Shown in pieces: positions 5,550 through 59,931 of a DNA stretch of 64,000 nt. Positions within the stretch are counted from its first letter, which is position 1. Each line of letters opens with the position of its first letter. Origin of the DNA: Verrucomicrobiia bacterium (GTDB taxonomy: Bacteria > Verrucomicrobiota > Verrucomicrobiia > Limisphaerales > UBA8199); NCBI GenBank assembly GCA_035934555.1, contig DASYXT010000096.1, forward strand, positions 1 through 64,000, written 5' to 3'. The notes beneath the pieces are model-generated. The model searched no databases and had not been told where the DNA came from. It worked only from the letters and a program-made list of their open reading frames with translations. The position numbers were made by a program, and so were the translations under genes.

Positions 5550-6158
5550 ATGGCCAAGCTCTTGATTAAGTCTGAAGGGTTCAATAACCAGGTACTGCAC
5601 CTTAAACTGGGGCGCAATCTGATTGGTCGCAGCCCGATCAATGACATCCAGGTGGATCACCCGACGGTATCGGCGCAGCATTGTGAATTGATCCTGGATG
5701 GCAATGGCGTGGCAGCGCATGACTGCGATTCTACCAACGGCACGTTCCTGGATGGCGAACCGATAACGCATGCCACGTTAAGCGCCGGGCAAATTCTCAG
5801 GCTGGGCGACGTCGAAATGTTGGTAGAAACCACCGAGGTTAAAGTTGCCATTCCCAAATTTGACCTGCCCCGCCCTGCCCCGCCGGTTGCGCTGGCCGAT
5901 GGAGGCCTGATGTGCAATCGCCATCCCCGCGCCCGAGCGACGTACCAGTGCACCCATTGCCTGGAGGTGTTGTGCGAGGCATGTGTGCACCGGCTGCGCC
6001 GGCGGGGGGGCAAGGTGCTTAAACTGTGCCCGCTCTGCAGCCACAAATGCGAGTTGCTGGGCGGCGAGAAAAAGAAGAAGAAATCGTTGCTCGGCTTTCT
6101 TCAAAAGACGGTCAAACTGCCCTTCGTCCATACATCGAAACGGACCGACTCCGAGTAG
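5550..6158 (+). CDS. FHA-domain protein with a C-terminal Cys-rich zinc-ribbon/B-box-like motif
   Basis: FHA core LGRNLIGRSPINDIQVDHPTVSAQHCELILDGNG…STNGTFLDGEPI. C-terminus CNRHPRARATYQCTHCLEVLCEACVHRL…CPLCSHKC (about 8 Cys/His), then a poly-Lys tail. Confidence 0.75.
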   Translation: MAKLLIKSEGFNNQVLHLKLGRNLIGRSPINDIQVDHPTVSAQHCELILDGNGVAAHDCDSTNGTFLDGEPITHATLSAGQILRLGDVEMLVETTEVKVAIPKFDLPRPAPPVALADGGLMCNRHPRARATYQCTHCLEVLCEACVHRLRRRGGKVLKLCPLCSHKCELLGGEKKKKKSLLGFLQKTVKLPFVHTSKRTDSE

Positions 6159-19800: not shown

Positions 19801-21407
19801 CGGCGCAAATAGTGAGCCAGTTGGTTGGCCCGGTGGTTGAGTTCGCTATAGCTCAAACTGCGCCCGCCATAAACGACCGCCGGGGCAGACGGCGTCCTGG
19901 CCACTTGCGCCTCGAATACCTGATGAACGGTGCATTGGCGCGGATAATCTGATTGCGTTTGGTTCCATTCCACGAGCAGCCGGTCCTCTTGCGCCGGAGT
20001 AAGCAAGGGCAATTCCAAGACAGGCCGCTGCGGCCGCGCAATAATTCCCTCCAGCAGAACCTGAAAACTCTCCAGCAGTTGCTCAATGGTGGCTGCCTCG
20101 AACAGCTCCCTCCTATACTCGGCGCTCAGCAGCAAGCCTTGACCGGTCTCGCGCGCTACCAGCGTCAGGTCAAACTTTGCCGTATCGGTCCTGACGGGAA
20201 GGAACTCCACACTTAGGCCAGGCCAATCGAGTTTGTCCCGGGATTGGTTCTGCAGCACAAACATGACCCGCGTGAAAGGCAGATGATCGAGCGACCGCTC
20301 AGGCCGCAGGTGCTCGACCAATTTCTCGAACGGCAAATCCTGATGCGCATAGGCGCCCAGTGTCGTCTCGCGAATGCGCCCAAGCAGGTTGAGGAAGTTC
20401 GGGTTATCCGCCACGTTGCTGCGGAAAAGCAGCGTGTTGACGAAAAAGCCTATCAAAGGTTCGATTTCAGCGCGCGTGCGCCCGGCAATCGGCGAGGCTA
20501 CGGTCAGCTCGTCCTGGCCAGTGTATCGATGCAGCAACGTTGCCAGAGCTGCCTGCAGCGTCATGAACAACGTCGTCTCCTGTTTTTTTGCCAGTTCAAC
20601 TATTTGCCCCGTCAGTTCCGGGTTTAGGAGACGGGATCGTTCAGCTCCACGAAACGAGGGGGTCGCCGGGCGCGGCTTGTCCGTCAGCAACTCCGTCATT
20701 GGGGCGTTTCCGCCTAACTCCTCTTTCCAATAGGCCAAGAGCGATTGCAGGCGCGTGCCCGTGAGCCATTGCCGCTGCCAGGCTGAATAGTCGGCATATT
20801 GAATCGCGAGTTTCGGCAATCGGCTCTCATTGCCTGAGGCGGCCGCGGTGTAAAAAAACTCCAATTCCCGGAAAAGGATATTCAACGACCATTCGTCAGC
20901 CACGATGTGGTGGAGAGTAAGGATTAACCAGTGCTGGTCGGCATCCAATCGCAGCAACAAACCGCGTATCAACGGCGCGGTGCGCAGATCGAACGGCCGA
21001 TTGACTTCGGAACGCACGAGTCGCCGCGCCTCAGCTTCGCGATCAGCCTCAGGATGCCGGGTCAAATCGACCTGGACCAGCTTCAGCTCCGCGCGTGCCT
21101 CGACGAGCTGCATCGGCGTATCATTCAAAGAGACAAACCGCGTACGCAGTGTCTCGTGTCGCTGCTGACAAAGATAGAGCGCCTGCTGCAAAGCCTCGAC
21201 GGCGAGTGTTCCCCGAAGCCGCAATAAGGTCGGAACATTGTACAGCGCGCTATTGGATTCCAGTTGGTCCAGAAACCAAAGCCGTTCCTGGCCAAACGAT
21301 AATGGGCTGAGGGGCAACGGTCCTGCGCCGTTGCGCCATTTGTCCGCCAAAGCCGCGCGTTTGGCTGCAATCGTGTCAGCCATCGAAGGGTGGTTGCCTT
21401 TCATCAT
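7839..21407 (-). CDS. Giant NRPS (4522 aa). Domain order C-A-T-TE-A-T-C-A-T-C-FkbH(HAD-IIIC)-T-TE
   Basis: Read from the translation. C motifs HHIVADEWS and HHIISDGWS, plus a variant HELAVDGRS. Three A domains ([48 protein letters not shown]; [20 protein letters not shown]). Four carrier domains (GGHSFLA, GGHSLAA, GGHSLLA, GGHSLLA). Two alpha/beta-hydrolase TE domains with GGYCFGG nucleophile elbows. An FkbH-like HAD domain with [20 protein letters not shown]. Confidence 0.95.
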
Positions 21408-24400
21408 GTAGAAACTGTGCGAACGGGTCGGACCGCCAGAAGGTCGTCAAGTTCCTCGGGCGTTAATTGTTCCAGCAGCGTGTTCAGCTCCGAGCTATCT
21501 GCCGGCTGACGCGGCCGGATGACAGCCCCCGCGGCCGGCTCTTGCTGCTCAAGGCGCCCCAACTGCTCAGCTAATCCGGCCACCGTCGGCGCATCAAAGA
21601 GCAACCGCACCGACAGCTCCAATTCCAATGCAGCGCCCAGACGCGCGATCGCCTGGGTCGCCATCAATGAGTGTCCGCCCAGGTGGAAAAAATTTTCCTG
21701 AATGCCGATTTCCTTGCGGCCCAGTAGTGCGCACCAGGTTTCTGCCACCAGCTTTTCCAAACGGTTTCGCGGCCCGCCCCCGGCGTCTTGGTGGTCCGGC
21801 TCTTCGGTGGCCAGCCTGGCCAGGGCGCGCCGGTCCACCTTGCCGTTGGTCGTCAGCGGTAACTCCTTCAGCAGAATGAACCGCCCCGGCACCATGTAAT
21901 CCGGCAGCTTTTCGCACAAATACGCGCGCCAATGGTCCGCTCGGCGTGCTTCGCCGGCCGTCACGATATAGGCCAGGAGCGTCTTGCCACCGCCGGCCTC
22001 GGGCTGCGCCAGGACAACACTTTGCTTCACATCCACATGGCGGTTCAGCCATGCCTCGATCTCCCCTAGTTCCACACGGTGGCCGCGAACCTTCACCTGA
22101 TCGTCCAGGCGGCCCAGGTATTCCAATTCCCCCTTTGAAGTGTAGCGGCCGAGGTCGCCGCTCCGATACAATCGGCCACCGGTCGTCGGCGCGAAAGGAT
22201 CAGGAACAAAGCGCTTTTCCGTCAATTCCGGGCGGTTGAGGTACCCGCGCGCTACTCCGGCTCCGCCGACGCATATTTCGCCTGCCACACCCGGCGGAAC
22301 GTGCCGCAAGCTCTCATCCAGCAGGTACAATCGAAGGTCAGGAATGGGCACGCCAATGACGCTGCCCAAACCGCGCTCCAGATCGCTTTGGCGAAGCGGG
22401 CGGTACGTCACATGCACGGTCGTCTCTGTGATGCCGTACATATTAACGAGCCGCGGGCGCTCATCCCCGTGCCGCTCGAACCATGGCCGCAAACTTTGCA
22501 GTTCGAGCGCCTCGCCGCCAAAGATCACATACCGCAGGTTCAGGGACCGGGCCGCTCGCGCATTGGTCTCAGCCCATATAAGTTGCCGGAACGCTGAGGG
22601 TGTTTGGTTCAGCACGGTCACGTTTTGGCCAGCCAGCAATTGCAGAAACTCGTTGGGCGAACGGCTGACCAAATAAGGCACTACCACCAGCCGCCCGCCG
22701 TAAAGCAGCGCTCCCCACAGTTCCCAGACGGAGAAATCGAAAGTGTAGGAATGGAACAGAGTCCAGACATCGTGCGAGCCGAATTCGAACCAGGGCTGGG
22801 TTTGCTGAAACAGGCGCGCGACATTTCGGTGCGTCACCAGCACACCCTTGGGCTGGCCCGTCGAGCCCGAGGTGTAAATGACGTAAGCGGTTTGGCCCGG
22901 GTTTACTTTCGTCCCCAGGTTGTCTGCGGACTCCTCTCCAATTTTATCTTGCTCCAAATCTACACAGAGGACGCCAGCGCTCTCGGCCGGTAAAACCGTC
23001 CGGAGGTGTTGCTGAGTGATCAGCACCGGTGCGTGGGTGTCCTGCAGCACGAAGCGAATCCGCTCGACCGGGGCGGCTGGCTCGAGCGGCACGTAATAGC
23101 CTCCCGCTTTTAAGACCGCCAGAATGGCGATAACCATCTCAAGGGATCGCTCCAGGCACAGCGCCACAGGTGTTTCAGGTCCGACCCCGCGCTGTTGCAG
23201 GTAATGCGCCAACTGATTTGCGCGGCGATTCAGCTCCTCGTAGGTCAAACGGGTGTCCCCGCATACCAGCGCCACCGCGGTTGGCGTGCGAGCGGCCTGT
23301 TGTTCAAACCAGTCGGTCAGGGCCACGTCGGATGCGACGCACGGCGTCTTGGGGTTTAACTCAGTTATGAACCTCTGTCGCTCGAGGTCGCTCAACAGCT
23401 CGAACTCCGAGAGCTTGCGCTGCGGCTCGGCCACAATCCCGCGCAGAAGCGCTTCGAATTGGCCAACCCACTGGCGCACGGTGCCAGCCTCGAACAAATC
23501 GGTCGAATATTCTGAGCGAACCGCCAGGCCCTGCCGTGTCTCAGTCACCAGCAAGCTCCAATCGAACTTCGAACCGCCGTTATCCACTTCGACCCGGCTG
23601 ACGCTCACTCCCGGCAATTCCCAATCTTCCAATTGGGCCGGTTGCAACGCCAGTACTGTCTGGAACAGCGGGTGGCGGTCGGCCTGGCGCTCGGGGCGCA
23701 GGCGCTCCAGAATCTTGTCCACGGTCACCTCTTGATGCGCATACGCCCCCAGGACGTTTTCCCGGACACGGCTCAACAGCTCGGTGAATGCGGGGTCTCC
23801 GCTCAAATCTGTTCGCAAGGCGTGTGTGTTAGCGAAAAAGCCAAGCAGCCCCTCGGTTTCGAGCCGGCCACGGCCGGCCATTGGTGTCCCAACAATGACG
23901 TCTTCCTGGCGTGTGTAGCGATGCAGTAAAGTCTGATACGCGGCCAAGAGCGTTATGAACAACGTCGCCCCGTGCCGCTGGCTTACTCCTTTGAGTCCCT
24001 CCGTCAATTCCCGATCAAAATGGAAAAACTCACTCGCCCCAGCCAGTGTGTTCGCGGCCGGCCGCGTCCGGTCGGTGGGCAATGCCAGAACCGGCAGTGG
24101 CTGGGCCAGTTTGGTTTCCCAATAGGAAAGCTGCTTCTGGATCCATTCACTGCCCAGCACATCACGCTGCCACACGGCAAAATCGGCGTATTGGATGGGC
24201 AACTCGGGCAAAGCCACCGGCCGCGTTGTCAGCTTCGCCGTATAAACCTCCGCCAATTCGCGCCGAAAAACTTCGAATGACCACTCATCCGAAATGATGT
24301 GGTGCATCGCTAACAGCAGCACATGATCATCTTCAGCCAGGCGAAAGAGGGTGGCTCGGGCCAATGGACCGCGGCGCAAGTCAAATGGGCGGCGCGCCTC

Positions 24401-24778
24401 GAGGGCAAAACGCCCTTCCCATTCACCCGCCTGCCGGCTCTCTCTTAGATCGGCTATTTCCAGCGCAAACCTGCCGGACGGTCTGATGACTTGCACCGGG
24501 CGGCCATCAGTTATCCCCATAACCGTTCGCAACACCTCGTGGCGGCGCACCAACGTGTCCAGCGCGGCCTGCAAGCTGGCGGGGTCGAGTTGTCCACGCA
24601 GGCGCCAGCCTTCGGCGAGGTTATAGGCCGAACTACCGGGGACCATCTGCTCGACGAGCCAGAGTGTCTCTTGCAGAAACGAGAGTGGGAACAGGTCCAC
24701 CGTGGCCGTGGGCCCGGTGTCCAGGCGCGAACTGCCGGCGAGCTCAGGTTGGCCTGCTCGCATTTGGAGGGGATTCAT
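21404..24778 (-). CDS. NRPS initiation module C-A-T (1124 aa) with a short C-terminal docking-like tail
   Basis: C domain (HHIISDEWS), A domain ([52 protein letters not shown]) and carrier domain (LGGHSLMATQ). Its stop overlaps the NRPS2 start as ATGA (21404-21407). Confidence 0.95.
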   Translation of the reverse strand: MNPLQMRAGQPELAGSSRLDTGPTATVDLFPLSFLQETLWLVEQMVPGSSAYNLAEGWRLRGQLDPASLQAALDTLVRRHEVLRTVMGITDGRPVQVIRPSGRFALEIADLRESRQAGEWEGRFALEARRPFDLRRGPLARATLFRLAEDDHVLLLAMHHIISDEWSFEVFRRELAEVYTAKLTTRPVALPELPIQYADFAVWQRDVLGSEWIQKQLSYWETKLAQPLPVLALPTDRTRPAANTLAGASEFFHFDRELTEGLKGVSQRHGATLFITLLAAYQTLLHRYTRQEDVIVGTPMAGRGRLETEGLLGFFANTHALRTDLSGDPAFTELLSRVRENVLGAYAHQEVTVDKILERLRPERQADRHPLFQTVLALQPAQLEDWELPGVSVSRVEVDNGGSKFDWSLLVTETRQGLAVRSEYSTDLFEAGTVRQWVGQFEALLRGIVAEPQRKLSEFELLSDLERQRFITELNPKTPCVASDVALTDWFEQQAARTPTAVALVCGDTRLTYEELNRRANQLAHYLQQRGVGPETPVALCLERSLEMVIAILAVLKAGGYYVPLEPAAPVERIRFVLQDTHAPVLITQQHLRTVLPAESAGVLCVDLEQDKIGEESADNLGTKVNPGQTAYVIYTSGSTGQPKGVLVTHRNVARLFQQTQPWFEFGSHDVWTLFHSYTFDFSVWELWGALLYGGRLVVVPYLVSRSPNEFLQLLAGQNVTVLNQTPSAFRQLIWAETNARAARSLNLRYVIFGGEALELQSLRPWFERHGDERPRLVNMYGITETTVHVTYRPLRQSDLERGLGSVIGVPIPDLRLYLLDESLRHVPPGVAGEICVGGAGVARGYLNRPELTEKRFVPDPFAPTTGGRLYRSGDLGRYTSKGELEYLGRLDDQVKVRGHRVELGEIEAWLNRHVDVKQSVVLAQPEAGGGKTLLAYIVTAGEARRADHWRAYLCEKLPDYMVPGRFILLKELPLTTNGKVDRRALARLATEEPDHQDAGGGPRNRLEKLVAETWCALLGRKEIGIQENFFHLGGHSLMATQAIARLGAALELELSVRLLFDAPTVAGLAEQLGRLEQQEPAAGAVIRPRQPADSSELNTLLEQLTPEELDDLLAVRPVRTVST

Positions 24779-26915: not shown

Positions 26916-29630
26916 ATGTCGCTGATGGATGCGTTCCTGCTAGACCCGCTTCCGGTGGACGTCTGGCTTGCGCTCCGGACCGACGGCGCGGTGGGCTCGG
27001 GCACACAGGATGACCCATTTGACGGCAGCACAGTGAGCATCCCGGGGCCCACCGTCTCTTCAATCACAGCACCAAGCGCCCCAGGCCAACCACCTGGGCT
27101 GACAGCAATCGTTACCACCTCGTCAAGCCACGGCTTCCAAAACGGTGCGCTGGTTCTGATCGACGGAGCCGACGAGGGACCGTCCTATTCACCCGCTTAC
27201 TCCAAATACTACAATGGCACCTTTGTTATCACGGTCCTGACGTCCACCACGTTTTCGTACCAGATGATTGGAGCACCGAGCACCTCTCCGGCCAGCGGCA
27301 CGATCACCTGCCGCCTGGATCCTTACCGGTTCGATGCGGTCATGTACTCGTTCCAGAGCAGTGTGTTGCCGGTTACCGTCCATTTGGGGCCGGGGACGTT
27401 TCAGACCAAGGGCTACACGCCGACGGTTGGGGACATGCCGAACCTGGGTGCCTCCTGGACCCCGCCCACCGCCGGCATGAAGATTCTCGGTTCGGGAATC
27501 AATGTCACAACCTTGCAGCTTGTCCGGGCGGTGGTTGGCGATTCAGGCAACGACTATTTTGCCATCGGCGGCCCGTACAACCTCTCGGTCAGCGCCTTCG
27601 AAGCCGCCGATTTCACCGTGGACTGCAATATGGCCGGTCAGCCCTCGCAAACAACCACTTGCGCGGCCATTGCCATCGGCGGCAACCATGTTCGTTTGCG
27701 CCGCATCCGGGCCATTAACTTCGGCACGCAGTGCGTCCTCACCTCCACAGAGTGCTTCGCTTTGGCCAGTGGCGGTCTTTTCCCGGTGGAAAGCGAACCA
27801 CGGCAAGGAATCGATTGCATCATCGAGGATTGCATCGTCGAGCAACCCTCATTCAATAATACAGTCGAGACCACCTGCATTGGCCTCGGCGGCAGTGAAA
27901 ACGATGGCGATGGCCGGATGAACTTTATTCTGGCGCCGGCCATACGCCGGTGCCACGTCAACTGCGAATATCGGGACAGGCCGGTGCCCATCGCCAGCCT
28001 CACGATTTCCGCTGGGGTGGCGACGGTCACCACAAGCCTCCCTCACGGCCGGGCGGCGAACGATTGGGTGCGTATCAGCGGCGCTGAGGTCAACGGCAAC
28101 ACCAACAACTCTTTCAACGGAGCCTACAAGATTTCCAACGTCTCGACGTATACATTTCAGTACACTCCGAACCCATCGCAAACTACTGCCCCAACTGGCG
28201 GGGATATGTGGGTCGGACGTTGGCCAAGCTTGCCCAATGGAATCGTGGGCATTTCAGGAAGTGGCACCGTTACCGTTCAAACGGCGGCCCCTCACTTCCT
28301 TGCCCCGGGGAGCACCGTACAGATCGGCGGAACGACCCCTGGGGACTACGGCGGCGCTTATCAAGTCAACGTCATCCCCACCAGCCCCACTGGCCAGGCT
28401 TACGAATTTACCTACACCCCAAGCGGCAATCCGGGGTGGATCTCCGGCGGCTTCATTGGCGTTTCGTTTTTCGTCCTGACGGGCGGGGGCAGCACTGCCT
28501 CGGTGGTTGAAGGCAATATTGTACTCAATGCCAAGTACGGCGGCCCGCATCACGACACCTTTACCACCCGCGACCAAACCGTGCGCAACAATTACTTCCG
28601 GGCCGTGATGACTGGTTCGGATGAGGACCTGGAAACCCTAAGTTACAGCAGGACGACCGGGGTGGTTCCACTCGCCTCGGTGTATAACGGTGGCAGCGGC
28701 TCCATCGCGACTGCGACCACAAAGACGGGATATGGGAATCATGGGTTTGTCGCGGGCAACTCGGTCGTGATTTCCGGGGCCAGCGGCTCGGATGGGGAAC
28801 AGTACTACAACAGTCCTCTAGACGCCAACGGCGTGCCTAAAGCCTGGACCGTCTTGGCTAGTCCGGCCCCCACAGCCACAACGTTTGCGTACGACCTAAG
28901 CCAGTGGGAGACGAGCTTTCCCACTGCGGAGGCCACAAACGCTTCATACGTGCCGCCGGACAACCAGCGATTGCTGTACTCGTTGACCTATGACCCCACG
29001 ACGCTAATTGCGACAGCCACGGTAGACCCAAACCTTTTCTCAAATGGCCACGGTCTTTCTATTGGAGACGCGGTTCTCATCAGCAAGGCCCCCATGGCGG
29101 TCAACGCTTACAACGGGAGATTTATTATCACGTGGGTCTCGGCTAGCCAGTTCCAATATCAGCTCACGAGCAATCCGGGAGCGAACTCCACGGCTGGCTA
29201 TTACGGTAGGGTTTGGCAGACGCACAATATGGCGCTCGAAGCGAATATCCTCGAACTCATCCCGACGCCTTCGGCCCAGGCGCAACCAATTGCTCTGAAC
29301 TTCGGCTCGCCCCCGGCTGGTTCCCCCCCAATCTTCGTGATTTTGCTCGCTCGGAGGAACGTGGTCAGGCACGTTGACGGGCTGACCGATTCCGGGGGTT
29401 ACGCGGCGCTCGCCATTTCGGTGGTTGGCTGCGGCGGTCTTACGGTCGAAGACAACGTCGTGGACCTCCAAGCGACAAATCCCATCGCATATAACCAAAC
29501 GCAGAATGCAGAATTCTTTGCTAATGCGGCTCCAGGTGGCAGCCTTGTGCAGGGATACAACGCGGGGTCGTCGGAGTTGGTCGACGAGATTTCAACCACC
29601 ATTCAAGATGGTCTCCTTCTAGGATTATGA
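26916..29630 (+). CDS. Right-handed beta-helix (pectate-lyase/DUF1565-like) repeat protein, 904 aa, with about five inserted ~60-aa repeat modules
   Basis: N-terminus MSLMDAFLLDP…RTDGAVGSGTQDDPFDGST. Its paralog at 30603-32162 starts MSLLDALLLDP…RTDGRAGSGTLNDPYDGST. Shared blocks: HLGPGTFQTKGY, MKILGSGINVTTLQL, IRRIRAINFGT. Repeated inserts of the form …HG.…G..V.ISGA……NG.…V.SV.…F.Y… No signal peptide. Confidence 0.6.
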   Translation: MSLMDAFLLDPLPVDVWLALRTDGAVGSGTQDDPFDGSTVSIPGPTVSSITAPSAPGQPPGLTAIVTTSSSHGFQNGALVLIDGADEGPSYSPAYSKYYNGTFVITVLTSTTFSYQMIGAPSTSPASGTITCRLDPYRFDAVMYSFQSSVLPVTVHLGPGTFQTKGYTPTVGDMPNLGASWTPPTAGMKILGSGINVTTLQLVRAVVGDSGNDYFAIGGPYNLSVSAFEAADFTVDCNMAGQPSQTTTCAAIAIGGNHVRLRRIRAINFGTQCVLTSTECFALASGGLFPVESEPRQGIDCIIEDCIVEQPSFNNTVETTCIGLGGSENDGDGRMNFILAPAIRRCHVNCEYRDRPVPIASLTISAGVATVTTSLPHGRAANDWVRISGAEVNGNTNNSFNGAYKISNVSTYTFQYTPNPSQTTAPTGGDMWVGRWPSLPNGIVGISGSGTVTVQTAAPHFLAPGSTVQIGGTTPGDYGGAYQVNVIPTSPTGQAYEFTYTPSGNPGWISGGFIGVSFFVLTGGGSTASVVEGNIVLNAKYGGPHHDTFTTRDQTVRNNYFRAVMTGSDEDLETLSYSRTTGVVPLASVYNGGSGSIATATTKTGYGNHGFVAGNSVVISGASGSDGEQYYNSPLDANGVPKAWTVLASPAPTATTFAYDLSQWETSFPTAEATNASYVPPDNQRLLYSLTYDPTTLIATATVDPNLFSNGHGLSIGDAVLISKAPMAVNAYNGRFIITWVSASQFQYQLTSNPGANSTAGYYGRVWQTHNMALEANILELIPTPSAQAQPIALNFGSPPAGSPPIFVILLARRNVVRHVDGLTDSGGYAALAISVVGCGGLTVEDNVVDLQATNPIAYNQTQNAEFFANAAPGGSLVQGYNAGSSELVDEISTTIQDGLLLGL

Positions 29631-30598
29631 AGGAGAACTTAATACGTCCGACGAGGTTGCTTCTGCTGTTTGCATTGCTTACTGCGGTGATGGAATGCTG
29701 CCAATGGTGCCGAGCGGAATCGTTTGTGCTTGCGCCTACGCCGGGAACAACCTACCTCTCCAATGCGCTGCCTTTTCTGGTAAAGGATTCGGGCTACCCT
29801 TCGTTGCGGTACCAGCAGGTTTATAATTCCTCCCTATTCACAAATGTCGACCCGGCCTGCATTTACGTGACTACGATGACGTTCTACCTCGACTTCTACG
29901 GCCAGGGAGCCCAGTACTGGGTCGTCACCAATATGCAGATCAGTCTGTCCACCACCAGCAATCGTGCGGATCACTTGAGCCCGGTCTTCTCCGAAAACGT
30001 CGGTGCTGATGACACGGTAGTTTTCGGTCCTGGCTCATTCTACTTCCCAGGAGGCAGCGCAGGTGACAGCCAGGAGGTCCCGTTCACACGACCGTTTCGA
30101 TATGATCCTACCCACGGAAACCTGCTGCTTGATGTCCGGATTTTTGTAAGTATTGGGGCATTTGATTCTAGGTACCCCACTTTTGAGGCCTACAGCTCGA
30201 CAACCGACCAGTGCTCTCGTGTTTGGGCACCGGCTGTTAACTCGCTCATGGCCACCAACCTTGACAGCATAGGGTTGTTCACGACTATACAATTGAGCCC
30301 CATCCCATCGCTTACGGCCCAATTCTTCCCAGCGTACGGAAGCCTGTCTAACATCACGCAGATCACCTGGCCTCCGCAGCCGAGCGTTTTTCGACTGCAA
30401 AGAAGCGACCGGCTCGGGCTGGGAGCCAACTGGAGGTTTGTGACCAACGGCATTTCCGGCTCACTTATAACTGTAACCAACAGCTCTGCCGGCACCGCCG
30501 GCTTTTACCGGCTGATTTGGACGAATGGATATGGAGCCGCCGCTCGATGTGGTGGCCCTCCAGCCGCCACGTCGCCCCCACAACCTTTTCCAAGGTGA
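29627..30598 (+). CDS. Secreted hypothetical protein (323 aa)
   Basis: ATGA overlap with the upstream gene. Signal peptide MKENLIRPTRLLLLFALLTAVME. Ser/Thr/Gly-rich. I recognise no domain. Confidence 0.55.
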   Translation: MKENLIRPTRLLLLFALLTAVMECCQWCRAESFVLAPTPGTTYLSNALPFLVKDSGYPSLRYQQVYNSSLFTNVDPACIYVTTMTFYLDFYGQGAQYWVVTNMQISLSTTSNRADHLSPVFSENVGADDTVVFGPGSFYFPGGSAGDSQEVPFTRPFRYDPTHGNLLLDVRIFVSIGAFDSRYPTFEAYSSTTDQCSRVWAPAVNSLMATNLDSIGLFTTIQLSPIPSLTAQFFPAYGSLSNITQITWPPQPSVFRLQRSDRLGLGANWRFVTNGISGSLITVTNSSAGTAGFYRLIWTNGYGAAARCGGPPAATSPPQPFPR

Positions 30599-30602
30599 TT
30601 TC

Positions 30603-32162
30603 ATGTCTCTACTCGATGCACTTCTCCTGGATCCCGTTCGAACGAATATCTGGATTGCCGTTCGGACGGACGGGCGCGCTGGTTCAGGTACGCTTAATGA
30701 CCCTTATGACGGCAGCACGGCCACGAAGTTCGATGCCGTGATGAGTTCTTTGTCCCAATACACTCGAGTCCATTTAGGCCCGGGAACATTCCAGACCAAC
30801 GGGTACGCCGACGGAGTTGGCGGTGGATGGCAGCCGCCGATTGGAATGAAAATTGTTGGGTCAGGAATTGACGTCACGATTCTCCAGCTCGCCGGGTCAG
30901 CTTCTGCTGCGCATTTCTACGCAATAGGTCACGCTCTCACGACGGGCAGTTCTCCGAATTCAATCGACTTTTTCGAAGTGTCGGACCTCACGGTTGACTC
31001 CAATCTTGGAGCGTTTTCCGCAGGATCCGCTGCGGCCGGGGCGGTTAGGGTTATGGGAAATCACGCCAAGATACGGCGGATTCGGGTCAAGAATTGGGGG
31101 ACCAAGTCGACGAGCAGACCCTGCTTTGTGGCAGCGGTAATTACCGCGAACCCCGGTGTCACGGGCGGTTTGAATGGTGTTGAGGACTGCGGGATAGAAG
31201 GGTGCATCGCGGATACACCCTACAGTATCAGCAACACTGGACCCGTAACGATTTTCCATGCGGGCGGCATCGAGACTGCCAGCGAGAATGTGACCGGTTA
31301 TGGGGTCGCCCCCTACATACGCAATTGCTTCGCCGACGCTGGTCAAACGCCGCCCTCGGCCGTGATCGAGATACAGGGCCTTTCGATTGCCTGGTGCAAG
31401 GCCGGAATCGTCGAGGGTAACCAGATGCACAACATGACCTATGGGGGTCCCTTCCAACAGACAACGAGTGCCCAAGATATTATCGCCCGAAACAACTGGT
31501 GCAGGAACGTCAATAAAGGCGTCGTGCTTGGGAGCATGGGAGCTTCGCGCGGATCCGGCGCACTTAGCGTTACGGCTGGAGTTGCGACTGTAGGCCTCAC
31601 TAACAGCCAACTGGCGGTCGGTGACATCGTTGTACTGAGCTCGTCATCGGGCGGTGGCATCTTCAATGGGATAGTCGTTACCGTTGCAAGTGTGAACTCG
31701 AGTCAGTTTACATTCAACACTACCCTCTCTGGAGCTGATACAGTCACCGTGTACAAGGTCTTTGGCGTGACTGAAAGCGTCCTCATTGAAGGAAACACGG
31801 TTGAGCTCGCAACTGCAACAACTGGCGTACTCATAGGGATCCATAACCAGGATTTCGCAGCAACTGGGGTTCTCCAAGGCACACCACCTGCCTACGTGTT
31901 CCAAGATGTCATTGTTCGCGATAACAAAGTGCGGTACTTGGACGGCACGCCGCCTGCGCCTGGATACGTGGGCTACGGCATCCAGGTAAATAGTGCGGCG
32001 AACCTGATCGTTCGGAACAATGTCGTTGATTCGGAGCCGGCGAACCCGATCCGCAATAACAGGTGCGGGTCGGTTACGTACTTCAATGATTTAACCTCAA
32101 ACGGAACTTTGATTCAGGGATTTAACGCCGATACCAATACTATTGAGTGCCGTATAATATAG
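30603..32162 (+). CDS. Right-handed beta-helix protein, paralog of 26916-29630 (519 aa)
   Basis: Paralogy as described for 26916-29630. The last codons and the TAG stop (…ECRII*) lie inside or at the left terminal repeat of the IS630 element. Confidence 0.6.
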   Translation: MSLLDALLLDPVRTNIWIAVRTDGRAGSGTLNDPYDGSTATKFDAVMSSLSQYTRVHLGPGTFQTNGYADGVGGGWQPPIGMKIVGSGIDVTILQLAGSASAAHFYAIGHALTTGSSPNSIDFFEVSDLTVDSNLGAFSAGSAAAGAVRVMGNHAKIRRIRVKNWGTKSTSRPCFVAAVITANPGVTGGLNGVEDCGIEGCIADTPYSISNTGPVTIFHAGGIETASENVTGYGVAPYIRNCFADAGQTPPSAVIEIQGLSIAWCKAGIVEGNQMHNMTYGGPFQQTTSAQDIIARNNWCRNVNKGVVLGSMGASRGSGALSVTAGVATVGLTNSQLAVGDIVVLSSSSGGGIFNGIVVTVASVNSSQFTFNTTLSGADTVTVYKVFGVTESVLIEGNTVELATATTGVLIGIHNQDFAATGVLQGTPPAYVFQDVIVRDNKVRYLDGTPPAPGYVGYGIQVNSAANLIVRNNVVDSEPANPIRNNRCGSVTYFNDLTSNGTLIQGFNADTNTIECRII

Positions 32163-32190
32163 TGACACACTGTGGGTTTGGTGCTAGTCT

Positions 32191-32700
32191 TTGGGCATGG
32201 GCAACCCAAAAGGCGTAAAACGCGATTTCGACAGCTTGGAACGGCGGCGACTCAAGGCTGCCAGCCTCTTTGACCGGGGCCTCAGTCAGGGGGAGGTGTC
32301 CCGACAACTTGGGGTTCACCGCCAATCGGTCAGTCGATGGCACCAAGCGTGGAGAAAGCAAGGCACCAAAGCGCTCTTTAAGGCTGGCCGGGCCGGTCGC
32401 AAAGCGCGGTTGCAGCCCTCTCAACTGGAGCAATTGAGTTGTGGATTGAAAGAAGGCCCCGAGGTCTTGGGCTATGGCACCAGCCTGTGGACGGCCTGGC
32501 GCGTGGCTGACCTGATCGAACGACAAACGGGGCAGAAGTTTCATCCCGGACATGTGTGGCGAATTCTGCGCTCTTTGGGTTGGAGTTGCCAACGCCCTGT
32601 CGGCCGGGCCACGCAGCGCGACGAGCCGGCTATCCGCCGGTGGAAACGGGTCCGCTGGCCGGAACTAAAAAAAAAGCCCGGCAAGAGCGGCGCACGATAG
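32191..32700 (+). CDS. IS630 transposase OrfA (HTH DNA-binding part)
   Basis: LSQGEVSRQLGVHRQSVSRW helix-turn-helix. Ends just after the AAAAAAAAAG run at ~32666-32675. Confidence 0.8.
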   Translation: MGMGNPKGVKRDFDSLERRRLKAASLFDRGLSQGEVSRQLGVHRQSVSRWHQAWRKQGTKALFKAGRAGRKARLQPSQLEQLSCGLKEGPEVLGYGTSLWTAWRVADLIERQTGQKFHPGHVWRILRSLGWSCQRPVGRATQRDEPAIRRWKRVRWPELKKKPGKSGAR

Positions 32701-33206
32701 TGTTTGTGGACGAGAGCGGCTTGAGCGAACGGCCGCACCGCGTTCGCACCTGGGCTCCTCGCGGCCAGACTCCGGTATTGCAGTATTCATTCAATTGGAA
32801 GTGCCTTTCGGCCATCGCCGGAATCACCATCTGGAGCTTCTATTTCCGCCTGTTTCCGGGAAGCATCAAAGCGCCTCAACTGATCGAGTTCTTGGAACAC
32901 CTCCAGCGACATATTAGCTCCAAGCTGCTGGTCATTTGGGATGGGCTGCCAGCGCATCGTAGCCGGGCGGTACGTGAATTTGTGGCCGGCTTGGATGGTC
33001 AAGTCCACCTGGAGTATCTTCCCGCCTACGCTCCGGAACTCAATCCGGTGGAATACATCTGGGGTTATTGCAAACAGCATGAGCTGCCCAATCTCTGCCC
33101 AAAGGACTTCGCTCAATTGACAGGTGCCGCCCGCAGAGCACTGGGCCGGATGCGCCGCCGCCCCACTCTGGTGGAGTCCTTCTGGAAACAGGCGGAACTT
33201 TTCTGA
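32556..33206 (+). CDS. IS630 transposase OrfB (DDE catalytic part), expressed by programmed frameshift from OrfA
   Basis: DDE triad context VFVDESG … IWDGLPAHRS … ELNPVEYIW, the IS630/Tc1 signature. Confidence 0.8.
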   Translation: MANSALFGLELPTPCRPGHAARRAGYPPVETGPLAGTKKKARQERRTIVFVDESGLSERPHRVRTWAPRGQTPVLQYSFNWKCLSAIAGITIWSFYFRLFPGSIKAPQLIEFLEHLQRHISSKLLVIWDGLPAHRSRAVREFVAGLDGQVHLEYLPAYAPELNPVEYIWGYCKQHELPNLCPKDFAQLTGAARRALGRMRRRPTLVESFWKQAELF

Positions 33207-33328
33207 GCCAAATGTCACTATATTATGCGGACATCAGTAGCTATGACGAGCTCTCAACCGAAGCTGACGATGCTCTGCTCATGGGATTTTTCAACCGAAA
33301 GTGAACATCAAAAAACCAAGGAATCAAA

Positions 33329-33658
33329 ATGGCTATACAAGTATTATCCCTGGGAAGTGGGCAATTGAGCACAACCTCCCAGAGCAACCTGTACACGTCA
33401 CCAACATCGCCATCGCTGACAACCGTGGTGAAGAACATTAGCCTAGTAAACGTGAGTAGCTCGCCTGTGACCGTCAACCTTTACTTCAAGCCGAACGGTG
33501 GCTCGGTCCGCCGAATCGCGCCGCAGAACATGAGTTTAGCGGCAGGTGCACTCGCGATTGAGGACCAGGAGGTGACGATGGGCGCCGGGGATCAGATTCT
33601 CGGCGACGCAAGTGCAGTTAGCGCGGTCGATTGGGTCATGAGTGGTATTCAGAGGTGA
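33329..33658 (+). CDS. Hypothetical Ser/Thr-rich small protein (109 aa)
   Basis: ORF with reasonable codon usage, immediately upstream of and coupled to the Gly-rich gene. No recognisable domain. Confidence 0.4.
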   Translation: MAIQVLSLGSGQLSTTSQSNLYTSPTSPSLTTVVKNISLVNVSSSPVTVNLYFKPNGGSVRRIAPQNMSLAAGALAIEDQEVTMGAGDQILGDASAVSAVDWVMSGIQR

Positions 33659-33665
33659 GGTCGTC

Positions 33666-34637
33666 ATGAGAACCACAGACACGCAGGGAAGGACGATTAT
33701 TCTGGAGCGCAGTTTCCTCGAGACGGGGATGTTCGGGGACGGGTCGGATGGCGGGGCCACATTCGACGGAACCGCGACGTTCTCCTTCGCCAGTAAGAAC
33801 GGGTCGGTCTATACCCTTACTCGGTCAATTTTTTGCGGCAGCATAACCGTGAACAGCGGTGTCACTATCCAGACGGCAGGGTTTAAGATCTTTTGCACTG
33901 GGACCCTAACAAATAAGGGGACGATCACGAATGCGGGAGCAACCGGCGGTTCCGGGGTCGGCTCAAGCAGCGGCTCGGGTGGGTCGGCGGTTGCGGCCGC
34001 CGAACTAGGCGGGTCGGTGGGGGGAGGGGCCGGAGCGCCCGGCGGCAGCAGCAGCGTGGCGCCGGCTCAGAACGGGTCCTCGGTTTCGGTGGCCATGGGA
34101 GCGGGCGGCGGGGGAGGAGGGTCGGGTGGCTCGGCTACTGGAGGTGCTGGTGGAAACCCAGGCAGTGGCGGAGCGATCACCAGCAGCCGGCCCCTAAGAG
34201 CTCTGAACCACCACTTAATATCCGGTGTAACCCTCATTTCCGGTGGCGCAGGCGGAGGCGGTGGGGGCGGCGGCAACAACGGAAGCTATCCGGGCGGTGG
34301 AGGTGGTGGGGGAGGAAGCGGCGGAGGTGTGCTAATGATTTTTGCCGCAACCTTGGACAATTCGAGCGGAACGATCACCGCAGCCGGCGGAACTGGAGGG
34401 AGCGGGGCCCAGGGCACGCCCTCTGACAGCGGTACAGGAGGGGGCGGGGGTGGTGGCGGCGGAGGCGTGGTTTACCTCGTGTATAATAGCCTCGTCCCAG
34501 GCGGGCTAAACATTGCTGGCGGCTCTGGCGGCGCTGGCGGCAGCCCCAGCGGCGGAGGTAGCGCCGGCTATGCGGGGTCCCCCGGCGGTTCGGGCACGCT
34601 CCTAAAGTACAACGCGACCCGGAAGCAGTGGGAGTAG
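33666..34637 (+). CDS. Glycine-rich, fibre-like hypothetical protein
   Basis: Good RBS (GGTGAGG). An N-terminal ~100-aa globular part, then long poly-Gly/GGxGG tracts (GGGGGGSGGSATGGAGGNPGSGG…GGGGGGGGGGVVYLVYN), reminiscent of phage tail-fibre or Gly-rich adhesin domains. Confidence 0.5.
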   Translation: MRTTDTQGRTIILERSFLETGMFGDGSDGGATFDGTATFSFASKNGSVYTLTRSIFCGSITVNSGVTIQTAGFKIFCTGTLTNKGTITNAGATGGSGVGSSSGSGGSAVAAAELGGSVGGGAGAPGGSSSVAPAQNGSSVSVAMGAGGGGGGSGGSATGGAGGNPGSGGAITSSRPLRALNHHLISGVTLISGGAGGGGGGGGNNGSYPGGGGGGGGSGGGVLMIFAATLDNSSGTITAAGGTGGSGAQGTPSDSGTGGGGGGGGGGVVYLVYNSLVPGGLNIAGGSGGAGGSPSGGGSAGYAGSPGGSGTLLKYNATRKQWE

Positions 34638-34706: not shown

Positions 34707-35939
34707 ATGCCATTGAGTTCAATCTCACCGGAACCAGCAGAAAGCATCCTCAACACCGGAGGGCTCTGTCTGGTGATGGTCGTACGGAACGATGCCCAGG
34801 TGATCACACGCTGTCTGGATTCGGTCAGGCCGATTATCTCCACCTGGGTCATTTGCGATGCTGGATCGACCGACGGCACGCAGGACAAAATCAGAGACAG
34901 TCTGGACGGCATACCGGGAGAACTGCACGTAGTCCCTCGGGTGAACCTCGGACACAACCGCGCGGAAGCCCTGAGGCTTGCATCGGGAAAGGCATCCTAT
35001 CACCTCCTGCTGGATTCAGACATGGCGGTGAACGTGTGCAGTCCACTCGAACACGCCCTCTCGGCGGACTCTTACTTGTTGCGGCAGCAAGGGGACCTGG
35101 AATGCTGGCTCGAATGTCTCCTGAGCGACCGGCATCAATGGCGCTGCGCAGGTTCGGCGCGCCCCTTTTTCCATTCGCGCACAGCCTCTACTCGCCACAA
35201 GCTCGGCAATTTTAGCATCGTTCGCCATCGGGACGCCCCGCGCACTCCCCCGGAAATCCACTGCGAAGTCGAAGCGCTCAAGAGCGAACTTCAACGCGGC
35301 GCGAATGTCGCCCGCTGCACTTTCTATCTGGCCGAATGCTACCGGGAACTCGGAAATCTGCCCCTGGCCATTGAGTATTACGAAACCAGGTCCAAGATGG
35401 CCGGCTGGGAGGAGGAGATATGGTATTCAATTTATCAGGTCGCTCGGTTGCAGCAGCGCCTTGGTATTGCGTGGGTGCTGGTGCTCGATCAATATCTCCG
35501 CGCCTACCAGTTCCGCCCGACAAGAGCAGAACCGCTGTTTCACGTCGCACGCTTCTATCGCCAGAACGCTCAGTATGCGCTGGCGCACATGTTTTCCACA
35601 GCCGGACTCCGCATCCCGCTTCCCGACGACCTTCTGTTTATCGACCGATCGGTCTATGAGTATGGCATGGAATTCGAGCATTGTCTTTCGTGTCAACAGC
35701 TCGGAAAGCAAAAGGAAGCGGCTCACTCCGCCGAACAAATCCTGTCATGCCCCGGCATTCCAGAGGACGTCCGGGTCGCCGCTCAACAGTGCCTCGATCC
35801 GCCTCTCCGGACGCAAGCACTTCTAAATCACCCGCCCAACGGCGCCTCCCGCGAGAGCAGCCGCACCCATCCAAACGGATTCCCGGTCGAGCGCCGTGCC
35901 GCATGTCCACCGATACCTCAAACCCGCCAACCAAGCTGA
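34707..35939 (+). CDS. Family-2 glycosyltransferase with a C-terminal TPR region
   Basis: GT2 DxGSTDGT motif (ICDAGSTDGTQDKI) and a DSD motif (LLLDSDM), followed by TPR-like repeats (FYLAECYRELGNLPLAIEYYETRSKM…). Confidence 0.7.
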   Translation: MPLSSISPEPAESILNTGGLCLVMVVRNDAQVITRCLDSVRPIISTWVICDAGSTDGTQDKIRDSLDGIPGELHVVPRVNLGHNRAEALRLASGKASYHLLLDSDMAVNVCSPLEHALSADSYLLRQQGDLECWLECLLSDRHQWRCAGSARPFFHSRTASTRHKLGNFSIVRHRDAPRTPPEIHCEVEALKSELQRGANVARCTFYLAECYRELGNLPLAIEYYETRSKMAGWEEEIWYSIYQVARLQQRLGIAWVLVLDQYLRAYQFRPTRAEPLFHVARFYRQNAQYALAHMFSTAGLRIPLPDDLLFIDRSVYEYGMEFEHCLSCQQLGKQKEAAHSAEQILSCPGIPEDVRVAAQQCLDPPLRTQALLNHPPNGASRESSRTHPNGFPVERRAACPPIPQTRQPS

Positions 35940-36937
35940 TCCTGAGGAACTGGCTGTCCCCCGGCGACATTATCATGCTCACCGCAGCCGTTCGGGACCT
36001 CCACCGTTGCTACCCGGGGCGCTTCCTGACCGATGTCAAAACACCAAGCCCTCAGCTTTGGGAGAACAATCCCTACCTCACGCCTTTGGACGAGAAAGAC
36101 CCGGAGGTCCGCCTCATCGATTGCGAATACCCGTTGATTCACCAGAGCAACCAGAGGCCCTATCACTTCATTCATGCATTCATCGGCTTTTTGAATGAAA
36201 CTCTGGACCTCGACATTCAGGCCACCGATTTCAGCGGCGACATTCACCTGAGCAGTGAAGAGAAAACCTGGCCATCTCAGGTCCATGAAATCTGCGGCGA
36301 TGATCGGCCATTTTGGCTGCTCACCGCCGGCGGCAAGGACGACTTCACCATCAAATGGTGGGACCCGCACCGCTACCAGGAGGTCATCGATCATTTCAGA
36401 GACAGAATCCTCTTCGTGCAGGTCGGTCTCTCCGAGCACCACCACCCACCGCTCGACGGCGTCATCGACCTCCGCGGCTGCACCGACCTGCGCCACCTAG
36501 TTCGCCTGGTTTATCACGCTCAAGGTGTGCTCTGCCCCGTGACCTCGCTCATGCACCTGGCCGCAGCGGTCCCGACGAAACCCGCCGCGCCGCCCAGAAG
36601 GCCCTGCGTCGTTGTGGCCGGCGGCAGAGAGCCAGCCCATTGGGAAGCCTACCCCGGCCACCAGTTCATTCACACAATCGGCGCGTTACCCTGTTGCCAA
36701 ACCGGCGGCTGCTGGAAATCGCGAGCCGTGCCCCTGGGCGACGGCGACCTCAAAGACCGCCCGCAGGACCTCTGCGTCAATGTTGTAGGGAACCTGCCCA
36801 AGTGCATGGACATGATCACCGCTGACGAAGTCATTCGGCGCATCGAACTCTACTTCACCGGAGAAGCCGTCTCCTATCTCGCCCCCGACTGCCCGCCCAT
36901 CCCCGAGCATTTCCGCCACGGCATCGCGTCCTGCTAG
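35903..36937 (+). CDS. GT9 (heptosyltransferase-like) glycosyltransferase with a C-terminal Cys cluster
   Basis: GT9 N-terminus ILRNWLSPGDIIMLTAAVRDL and a TAGGKDDFTIKWWDPHRYQEVI block. C-terminus PCCQTGGCW…DLCVNVVGNLPKCMD. Overlaps the GT2 gene by 37 nt. Confidence 0.7.
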   Translation: MSTDTSNPPTKLILRNWLSPGDIIMLTAAVRDLHRCYPGRFLTDVKTPSPQLWENNPYLTPLDEKDPEVRLIDCEYPLIHQSNQRPYHFIHAFIGFLNETLDLDIQATDFSGDIHLSSEEKTWPSQVHEICGDDRPFWLLTAGGKDDFTIKWWDPHRYQEVIDHFRDRILFVQVGLSEHHHPPLDGVIDLRGCTDLRHLVRLVYHAQGVLCPVTSLMHLAAAVPTKPAAPPRRPCVVVAGGREPAHWEAYPGHQFIHTIGALPCCQTGGCWKSRAVPLGDGDLKDRPQDLCVNVVGNLPKCMDMITADEVIRRIELYFTGEAVSYLAPDCPPIPEHFRHGIASC

Positions 36938-36950
36938 AGCGGAGGACCGA

Positions 36951-37000
36951 ACAGTCCGGGACAGTCCGAGTTGATCCGAGTTAATCCGAGTTGAAAATCC
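36951..37000. repeat. Five tandem 10-bp units (acagtccggg, acagtccgag, ttgatccgag, ttaatccgag, ttgaaaatcc)
   Basis: Direct tandem repeat with 10-bp (one helical turn) periodicity in the GT9 to Gfo/Idh/MocA intergenic region. A related ATCCGAGT motif recurs at 42751-42778. Confidence 0.6.
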
Positions 37001-37160
37001 AGAAATGACCAATCCTAACCGATCCACTCGAGTTTCGTGCGCATTTCGAGCTTGCCAGGCGGCCCGGCGCACCCTTCCAATCTGCTCGAGCATTTTCAAG
37101 CACGGGGCGACTCGGCCACTCGCGCGCGCCGGAACTCGGGCAAGACAGTTTTCGCAAACT

Positions 37161-38321
37161 ATGAAACAACTCAGAATCGGTCTCGTCGGATACGGCTTCA
37201 TGGGACGCGCTCACTCGAACGCGTTTCGCAAAGCGCCAAACTTTTTCGATCTCCCCTATGAGCCCGTCCTGCAAGCCGTCTGTGGGCGTGACGACGCCAA
37301 GGTCCGGACCTTCGCCCGGAAGTGGGGGTACCAGGATGTGGAAACTGATTGGCGCCAACTCGTCCGCCGCAAGGACATTGACCTGATTGATATCGCCTGC
37401 CCCAATGATGTCCATAAGGACATCGCGCTCGCCGCCGCCAAAGCGGGCAAAATGATTCTGTGTGAGAAACCGCTCGCCCGCGACGCCGCTGAAGGGCGCG
37501 AAATGGTCAAAGCCGTCGAGAAAGCCGGCGTGCCGAACATGGTCTGGTACAATTACCGCCGCATCCCCGCTGTTACGCTGGCCAAACAACTCATCGATGA
37601 GGGCAAGCTCGGGCGCATCTTCCATTACCGCGCAAAGTTCCTCCAGGATTGGACCATTTCCAAAGACCTGCCGCAGGGTGGCGCGGGTTTGTGGCGCCTC
37701 GATGCCAAGGTAGCCGGCAGCGGCGTCACCGGCGACTTGCTCGCGCATTGCATTGATACGGCGCTCTGGCTTAACGGCCCGATGCAACGGGTCACGGCCA
37801 TGACCGAAACCTTTATTAAACAGCGCAAGCATACTCTGACAGGTAAAGTGGAGAAAGTTGGCATCGACGACGCCTGCGCGTTCCTGGCCCGGTTCGAGAA
37901 CGGGTCGCTGGCGACCTTCGAATCGACCCGCTACGCCCGCGGGCATAAAGCGCTCTACACCTTCGAAATCAACGGCGAACATGCCTCGATTTTCTGGGAC
38001 CTGCACGACCTGCACCGGCTGCAGTTTTTCGATCACCGCGACGAGGGACGGCTGCGCGGGTGGCGCTCGATTCATGTTTCCGATGGCGACCATCCCTATA
38101 TGAGCCACTGGTGGGTGCCGGGCCTGCAGATCGGTTACGAACACAGCTTCGTGCACCAATTCGCCGACTTCCTGACGGCTTTGGACAAGGGCCAGCCCGC
38201 TTCCCCCACCTTTCGAGAAGCACTGGAGACCCAATACGTTTGCGACGCCGTGCTTAAATCAGCCAGGACTGGCCGTTGGGAAAAGATGACGAAAGCGTTC
38301 CAGCTTGCGCCGCCCAAATAG
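37161..38321 (+). CDS. Gfo/Idh/MocA-family NAD(P)-dependent oxidoreductase
   Basis: Rossmann start [22 protein letters not shown], and EKP motif ILCEKPLA. Confidence 0.85.
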
Positions 38322-48466: not shown

Positions 48467-48681
48467 AAACGTCCGGACCAGTGAGACGCCTCATTTGGTC
48501 GCAGGGAGCGCTGCGGTCATTTCCCCCTAACATGGCGCAAAACTCAAGCGAAAGTTTGGCATTCTGAACCAAATGGGTTTGAGAGGTTTGGCCAAAATCA
48601 GGGCACAAATTATTGTAATTGTCCCAAGCTAACTACCACAGCCAGAACTGGCTTGGAAGTTGCTCGACTACTCCCTACCGA

Positions 48682-50772: not shown

Positions 50773-50812
50773 ACAATGGCACGACAGGTGCTCTGTCTTT
50801 GGGCAGAAGTAT

Positions 50813-59926: not shown

Positions 59927-59931
59927 CCGCG

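Follow-up and report, generated by a model that had tools for sequence, protein, structure and literature searches.

The stretch analysed here (hereafter the window) comprises positions 1 to 64,000 of the forward strand of contig DASYXT010000096.1, from a Verrucomicrobiia bacterium (assembly GCA_035934555.1). It carries a cassette of seven to eight genes, about 10 kb long and running from 26916 to at least 36937, in the order long beta-helix gene (A), secreted jelly-roll gene (B), short beta-helix gene (C), D, E and glycosyltransferases. An earlier note, made by reading the sequence alone, had described A and C as an operon of two paralogs; the unit is in fact this larger cassette. We tentatively favor, with a little less than even confidence, the reading that it is a glycan-targeting cassette of the phage-receptor-binding type, that it is not a prophage, and that A and C are its two "spike" genes. 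The cassette probably binds or cuts a polysaccharide. The A and C proteins have a known fold, in which they form new families, and the entire cassette is uncharacterized. The earlier statement that none of these proteins had been characterized holds, as their homologs are all recorded as "hypothetical" and no NCBIfam, PADLOC or solved relative was found.

The open reading frames (ORFs) of 904 and 519 residues and the 323-residue gene coupled between them were recovered as previously read. GGAGA precedes the ATG of A by 7 nt, the start codon of B overlaps the stop of A in an ATGA, and C begins at 30603, 4 nt past the stop of B and preceded by AGGTGA. Their proposed colinear paralogy also stands: BLASTP aligns A with C in four ordered blocks (E 2e-33, 2e-15, 2e-14 and 6e-8), of which the first covers the N-terminal half of the helix at 40% identity and the third the head, i.e. 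the first 61 residues, at 48%, while A 714-892 pairs with C 337-518. The shared motifs HLGPGTFQT[KN]GY, MKI[LV]GSGI[ND]VT[TI]LQL and IRRIR...N[FW]GT are present in both proteins. The bodies had been called divergent, but A and C retain 28-40% identity across the entire helix. Recent gene conversion between the two heads was considered and rejected, because their first 129 nt are just 62% identical. As noted earlier, A and C lack signal peptides and B has one. The N-termini of A, C, D and E are acidic and without a hydrophobic core, whereas the n-region of B is basic, its hydropathy reaches 2.9 in a 12-residue window and a C-R-A|E cleavage site is present; residues 8-27 of B are modeled as a helix preceding the folded domains. 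The exact B sequence is recorded as a hypothetical protein from a Verrucomicrobiae bacterium.

Structural modeling places A and C in the pectin-lyase/tailspike fold, each a right-handed parallel beta-helix that carries one to five FCCH-type barrels. The modeled helix is three-sheeted with stacked rungs. The Pfam beta-helix model finds no match in A or C even at E <= 1; PF13229 (Beta_helix) is recorded for ~20 of 120 listed homologs, with a "faint" match at one related locus (L045). Searches of PDB sequences with the single A and C sequences gave nothing useful. Compared with pectin-lyase-fold phage tailspikes and depolymerases (K5 lyase 2x3h, Det7 6f7k, HK620 2vji, phi29 gp12 3gq7 and CBA120 TSP1-4), sequence identity is just 9-14%, and both proteins lack the particle-binding N-terminal domain of 100-300 residues. 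The proposed conserved N-terminal anchor survives in part. Residues 1-11 form a free, conserved helix, but the remainder belongs to the beta-helix itself: in the C model the first strand (residues 15-19) runs into the GSGT..DP..DGST loop, and residues 40-49 form the cap helix, such that only residues 1-11 precede the fold and the chain belongs to the helix from residue ~12. M1, L3, A6, L7, L8, L9, D10 and P11 are at least 90% conserved in an alignment of 71 C-type proteins, and M1 and L3 are at least 86% conserved over 111 long and short paralogs; helix 3-7 of the C model has a low confidence score (pLDDT). Some multi-depolymerase phages dock to a partner via an equally short peptide. A and C, the latter once restored as described below, share both this 11-residue helix and a C-terminal helix of ~20 residues.

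The 519-residue C had been taken at its native length, which it is not. An IS630/Tc1-mariner-type insertion sequence (IS) lies inside the 3' end of the gene, with imperfect 28-nt inverted repeats (32140-32167 and 33213-33240), flanking TA dinucleotides at 32141-42 and 33238-39, an insertion point at 32141/32142 with TA target duplication, and a transposase with helix-turn-helix (HTH) domains and DDE_3 that is split over overlapping ORFs (32191-32700 and 32556-33206). HTH plus DDE_3, inverted repeats and TA duplication together identify it as an IS630/Tc1-mariner element, present in one copy in the window. Excision of 32143-33239 rejoins the frame (...GFNADTNT-SYDELSTEADDALLMGFFNRK*) to give 534 residues with a stop at 33302-33304. 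The C-family consensus runs ~20 residues past the 519-residue form (KYxELETxAEDALVLAL), SYDELSTEADDALLMGFFNRK agrees with it, and A has a similar ending, ELVDEISTTIQDGLLLGL. The 519-residue ORF is therefore a truncation product of the insertion. The element severs the last 21 codons, and with them the C-terminal helix, so C may be impaired in this genome.

Both spikes carry a repeated module. A hidden Markov model (HMM) trained solely on module columns, taken from 70 C-type homologs, detects five copies in A (domain E 1e-5 to 1.5e-15) and a single copy in C, and A therefore carries four more. The earlier note had recognized inserts repeated in A and single in C, which stands, but had counted about five insertions of ~60 residues; there are five in total, four of them extra, and they measure 76-102 residues. 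Their motif is HG(L/F)..GD.V.(I/F)SG....NG...V..V....F.(Y/F). Module 1 of A separates the GSGT..DP..DGST loop from the cap helix and is 39.5% identical to a Pseudomonas phage 8P "tail assembly protein", while module 5 is the counterpart of the lone module of C. Pfam E1_FCCH (PF16190) scores 22.5 bits at A residues 366-415, under its gathering cut-off of 29.5. The C module matches tail-tube positions 31-79 of phrog_584, "major tail protein", and the C-family profile matches residues 178-253 of the phage phi92 endosialidase 4hiz at E 0.013, in the module region only. FCCH domains are six-stranded barrels that face outward on siphovirus tail tubes (2026 paper, PMC13576161). The module is likewise predicted to be a small six-stranded beta-barrel, an outward accessory domain of E1_FCCH type. 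It resembles the tail-tube barrel and the 4hiz stretch in strand number, size and motif, but here one to five barrels are placed in or beside a beta-helix, rather than in a tail-tube or beta-propeller protein. Among the 111 paralogs, long ones hold zero to five modules, and exactly one is found in 80 of the 90 short ones. The Ser+Thr fraction is 0.20-0.30 in the modules and 0.19 over the whole of A.

Gene D follows the short beta-helix gene at loci where the region is readable, and belongs to a domain family of phage tail-fiber N-termini. An exhaustive HMMER search collected 1021 cluster representatives at E <= 1e-3 (a word-indexed search found four proteins only), which either stand alone at ~110 residues or form the N-terminal domain of a longer protein. 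In several of these fusions the C-terminal part matches tail-fiber PHROGs, SO2946-like_C or DUF5907, or has collagen-like and fiber-type repeats. One D-family member matches gp123 (106 aa) of Bordetella phage PHB04, which is flanked by four annotated tail-fiber genes. Against PDB sequences the D profile gave chance-level matches only, the SO2946 structure spanning the fused C-terminal domain and not D. A kinship of D with the repeated module was also considered and rejected (hhalign probability 6%).

Gene E has its own ribosome-binding site (RBS) and an ATG 8 nt past the stop of D. Its protein has no Pfam, PHROG or NCBIfam match, and has orthologs in L001/L007, L003 and L045. Comparison of E with the C-terminal regions of the D fusions detected no similarity, leaving gene order and translational coupling as the sole basis for the idea that D and E form a split fiber. 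Across loci, proteins in the E slot share the N-terminal motif M(R/K)I.D(T/A)(Q/N)G, followed by unrelated bodies: glycine-rich in the window, L007, L003 and L045, different and not glycine-rich in L008, and repeat-rich, possibly beta-helical as judged from sequence, in L043. The cassette contains two series in which a conserved N-terminal peptide is joined to an exchangeable body, namely the spikes and the E slot. This is the logic of phage receptor-binding modules. Beyond the domain-level PHROG matches to the module and D, comparison of A to E with Pfam, NCBIfam and PADLOC yielded nothing except the sub-threshold E1_FCCH and one chance-level NCBIfam match; PADLOC defense models had no match among nine proteins at E <= 0.01.

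A glycosyltransferase (GT) usually lies downstream of the cassette core where this region is visible, and enzymes of three types with no relation to one another occur: GT2-TPR with GT9 (window and L001/L007), GT4 (L009, L013, L016, L018 and L044) and GT_PLOD (L010 and L011). A weak match (E 0.006, ~40 residues) links the N-terminus of the GT2-TPR protein to a solved chain that bears the name GmaR, the flagellin O-GlcNAc transferase of Listeria. GmaR carries its GT2 domain at the N-terminus with TPR repeats behind it, and the cassette enzyme shares this layout. The sequence match to GmaR extends over only ~40 residues, and we infer, rather than observe, a role in glycosylating cassette proteins. 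The GT9-like protein, whose start codon was picked from the alignment, has no solved relative by sequence. A GFO/IDH/MocA oxidoreductase gene, on the same strand and 67 nt after the GT9-like gene, is possibly the last of the operon; at other loci a homolog occurs in L012 only, 3.6 kb upstream of the cassette. This gene overlaps a minus-strand ORF without a family match (36981-38234); its GFO/IDH/MocA domains and L012 homolog indicate that the plus-strand frame is the real gene.

The recurrence of the cassette can be followed through 35 loci from a scan of species-representative genomes, all in records titled metagenome-assembled genomes. The core was seen in roughly 20 loci of uncultured genomes, nearly all labeled Verrucomicrobiota. 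Locus labels are mostly Limisphaerales, Verrucomicrobiales, Verrucomicrobiae and Chthoniobacterales, with a few of Methylomirabilota, Terriglobia or "Bifidobacterium". Counterparts of A, B, C, D, E and the GT2-TPR and GT9-like genes all occur, in unchanged order, on one 558-kb Verrucomicrobiae contig (L001/L007), and the core order long helix, B-like, short helix, D is found in L003, L008, L009, L010, L011, L013, L014, L015, L017, L020, L023 and L043-L045, among others. A-type orthologs of 750-1050 residues fill the first slot, some B-slot proteins bear PEP-CTERM anchors, and one genome carries at least six loci. The families are large, with more than 190 C-type, 385 B-type and 1000 D-type cluster representatives.

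These cassettes lie among housekeeping genes that differ at every locus. In L045 the island is situated between lpxC-fabZ/lpxA and purA-uppS-cdsA-dxr-rseP, and in the window a hybrid histidine kinase and a non-ribosomal peptide synthetase (NRPS) lie upstream and metH downstream. Genes for capsid, terminase, portal, tail or integrase proteins were found neither in the window nor in the annotated flanks, which were read for 10 kb around related loci. Neither A nor C, therefore, lies in a phage or prophage structural module, the setting of a virion tailspike gene; the two genes are interleaved with genes for Sec-secreted proteins and followed by glycosyltransferases. A prophage context, which the earlier note had left in view, is excluded for the window and the related loci read. 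The resemblance to tailspikes or depolymerases that it had proposed persists at the level of domains, in the match of the module to phage tail proteins and of D to tail-fiber N-termini. The G+C content is 0.56-0.57 over the cassette (28000-34000) and ~0.60-0.62 on either side, consistent with an acquired island. No Rfam element was found within 24.5-39.5 kb, and promoter and terminator scans remained at background level.

On the preferred reading, the cassette would descend from, or share ancestry with, a phage receptor-binding module. The helix groove of A and C may bind, and possibly cleave, polysaccharide, with the barrels adding avidity or carbohydrate binding. Their conserved terminal helices could be oligomerization or docking elements through which interchangeable paralogs plug into one common partner, for which D, or D and E as a split fiber, would be the obvious candidate. 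The cytoplasmic glycosyltransferases might add sugars to the Ser/Thr-rich proteins of the cassette prior to their release, or else alter the target glycan, and B may be a lectin-like accessory protein outside the cytoplasm. If this is merely a set of unusual polysaccharide enzymes the gain is modest, namely the annotation of large "hypothetical" families. If it is a functional, phage-independent receptor-binding module, it would be a clear example of bacteria that have kept and diversified the host-recognition equipment of viruses. Such a module would imply that this poorly cultured phylum has either an unknown export pathway or an unknown phage-like particle, and would add a new glycan-binding or depolymerizing beta-helix family with modular barrel decoration.

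Several observations weigh against a phage-derived, glycan-targeting cassette. There is no evident export route for A, C, D and E, and the Sec signal on B together with PEP-CTERM on some B-slot proteins makes a mix untypical of phage modules. No catalytic constellation was recognized in A or C. The polar positions that are at least 86% conserved in the 111 paralogs (D128, T130, D132, R159, R240, E271, R296 and an Asn column, in C numbering) may be structural PbH1 features. The epimerase motif DPH(D/E) is absent: neither A nor C contains DPH, and DPH[DE] occurs in one of the 111 paralogs. The GH28 set (NTD / DD / GHG / RIK) is likewise absent, the lone GHG of A lying inside module 5 and C having none. 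No cassette relative was found in phages: neither tblastn searches of 50,697 GenBank phage records with C and D nor IMG/VR scans using the profiles of both gave a match, and A matched one phage protein, over a single module; phage ancestry thus rests on domain-level and fold-level similarity. Finally, L008, L014 and L020 lack a glycosyltransferase, and at some loci these enzymes could be unrelated neighbors.

A bolder version of the receptor-binding reading, to which we assign a minor but appreciable chance, is that of a domesticated viral receptor-binding cassette without a virion, comprising exchangeable spikes, a split D+E fiber and dedicated glycosyltransferases. It would either build glycosylated surface spikes, via an unrecognized route that is independent of signal peptides and uses the terminal helices, or arm an undescribed phage-derived particle. 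A related alternative, which we consider rather unlikely, places that particle elsewhere in the genome. The cassette would then be a remote receptor-binding locus for a tailocin, contractile injection system or gene transfer agent, with A, C, D and E cytoplasmic, attaching by their N-termini and released by lysis. This would account for the signal-less A, C, D and E, for the conserved N-terminal peptides on variable bodies and for the tail-fiber affinity of D. We know of no such phage-derived particle in this phylum, which counts against it, as does the lack of particle genes in the window or in the flanks read. The Sec signal of B, the PEP-CTERM variants and the glycosyltransferases are also left unexplained, and at least six loci in one genome are many for a single particle. 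Precedent for a remote locus exists in the RcGTA tailspike TspA (rcc02623), a tailspike-type protein encoded alone among housekeeping genes, away from the particle gene cluster with which it is co-regulated; the cassette spikes share such housekeeping surroundings. TspA is a single gene whose product has its own beta-sandwich N-terminal domain and is tied to a known particle via the regulator GafA (bioRxiv 10.64898/2026.07.19.739414). The verrucomicrobial cassette is instead multi-gene, and the beta-sandwich domain and GafA link are features of TspA.

We judge equally unlikely that this is a modification cluster for exopolysaccharide (EPS) or glycocalyx, in which A and C would be host lyases, hydrolases or epimerases, in the manner of AlgG/AlgE, RbmB or WceF, trimming the polymer made by the adjacent glycosyltransferases, with B as a matrix lectin. 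The closest parallel is WceF of Pantoea stewartii, also a chromosomal, tailspike-like beta-helix protein encoded beside glycan-synthesis genes; it is a hydrolase with a Tat signal, within a stewartan EPS synthesis cluster that includes wzc (PMC7949094). A and C have neither a Sec nor a Tat signal and no EPS synthesis cluster around them, which sets them apart from WceF: no EPS flippase, polymerase, export or priming-transferase annotation occurs among Pfam matches in the window and the flanks read. Neither TspA nor WceF, then, fits the cassette fully. Against the AlgE4 A-module (2pyg), RbmB (9ozd) and the alginate epimerase/lyase 8ja4, A and C show 12-15% identity and differ in lacking DPH(D/E), an absence that speaks against the EPS model generally; nor was an RTX or secretion signal seen in either. 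This model also has no place for a tail-fiber-type D and a glycine-rich E.

It is improbable that A and C are ordinary nutritional carbohydrate-active enzymes, i.e. secreted lyases or hydrolases of a polysaccharide-degrading verrucomicrobium with accessory domains resembling carbohydrate-binding modules, as they lack signal peptides, no Pfam glycoside-hydrolase or polysaccharide-lyase match was found among the proteins scanned, no transporter or regulator consistently accompanies the cassette, whose flanks vary from locus to locus, D and E are tail-fiber-like, and the termini are conserved between paralogs. Least probable of all is a decaying prophage remnant without present function: the domain-level links to phage proteins, the IS insertion in C, the many fragmentary or internally deleted copies at other loci, the low G+C and the one locus beside a TrwC relaxase (L011) would suit it, but the ORFs are full length and in the same order across several taxonomic orders at 40-65% identity, motifs are strongly conserved over the 111 paralogs, neighboring genes are translationally coupled, the annotated flanks contain no integrase or other phage gene, and no phage in two collections carries these genes.

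Table 1. Coordinates of cassette features in the window (positions at other loci where named).
Feature	Positions	Strand	Description
Gene A	26916-29630	+	904 aa, long beta-helix paralog without signal peptide; ORF and RBS
A residues 1-11, MSLMDAFLLDP	26916-26948	+	Short N-terminal helix common to paralogs
A module 1, aa 42-131	27039-27308	+	Module HMM E 3.7e-13; phrog_9998
A modules 2 and 3, tandem, aa 355-431 / 437-512	27978-28451	+	Module HMM E 2.6e-12, 1.1e-9
A modules 4 and 5, aa 574-675 / 683-763	28635-29204	+	Module HMM E 1.3e-5, 1.5e-15
Gene B	29627-30598	+	323 aa, Sec-type secreted; jelly-roll aa ~32-225, small C-terminal beta-sandwich aa ~230-298
Gene C, 5' part	30603-32142	+	aa 1-513 of the native 534-aa short paralog
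C module, aa 313-386	31539-31760	+	Six strands at residues 311-387 in the model; phrog_584
IS630/Tc1-mariner-type element	32143-33237	+	Inside the 3' end of gene C; inverted repeats, TA, DDE_3
Displaced C 3' end, SYDELSTEADDALLMGFFNRK*	33240-33304	+	Conserved C-terminal helix
Gene D	33329-33658	+	109 aa; domain family of phage tail-fiber N-termini
Gene E	33666-34637	+	323 aa, glycine-rich, N-terminal motif MRTTDTQGR...
E-slot motif	Window 33666-33695; L007 11929; L003 11933; L008 11944; L045 11956; L043 12611		Shared N-terminal motif of E-slot proteins
GT2 glycosyltransferase with C-terminal TPR repeats	34707-35939	+	Pfam Glycos_transf_2 and TPR; L001 syntenic ortholog 47% identity
GT9-like glycosyltransferase	35903-36937	+	Pfam Glyco_transf_9 (26.6 bits; cut-off 22); L001 syntenic ortholog 72% identity
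GFO/IDH/MocA oxidoreductase	37005-38321	+	Pfam

Some related loci show further features. Between the short beta-helix gene and D, three carry an extra small conserved protein of 128-151 residues beginning MANEIN.Q... (L010 15141-15596, L011 11689-12075 and L043 11766-12167), which has no Pfam or PHROG match and is absent from the window. A TrwC relaxase/helicase gene (L011 2171-5155) lies ~0.8 kb upstream of the L011 cassette on the same strand, and this cassette may ride on a conjugative element. Degenerate paralogs were found at L040 9950-10603, L037 10001-10411, L032 6148-6561 and L035 6428-6904; that of L040 joins the N-terminal head straight to the C-terminal helix part, which looks like an internal deletion. 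Head-only or tail-only fragments occur at other loci, some of which may be assembly frameshifts in metagenome-assembled genomes. As to labels, L010 (CAZBIC010000001.1) is titled "Bifidobacterium sp.", and the CAMAVD01 contigs (L018 and L022) "Akkermansia muciniphila"; the former title is probably an error, since the genes around its cassette match those of the other verrucomicrobial loci.

Elsewhere in the window, a separate secondary-metabolite locus is situated just upstream of the cassette, comprising an NRPS pair of 4522 and 1124 residues (7839-24778 and 6200-7939, both minus strand) with readable condensation, adenylation and carrier motifs, and an ABC exporter (ABC_membrane + ABC_tran) downstream of it. 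At 5412-6158 (plus strand) a 248-residue protein has both an FHA domain and a B-box-type zinc finger match (E 7e-5, slightly under the Pfam cut-off), a pairing unusual in bacteria. Two genes of glutamyl/glutaminyl-tRNA-synthetase type are present (53441-54886, minus strand, and 59827-60819, plus strand), one full length with an anticodon-binding domain and the other 330 residues long with the catalytic domain only, the layout of glutamyl-Q tRNA(Asp) synthetases. Downstream of the cassette, 48619-52153 (plus strand) encodes a TonB-dependent receptor followed by a 446-residue protein of at least four immunoglobulin-type domains (Ig_3, I-set).

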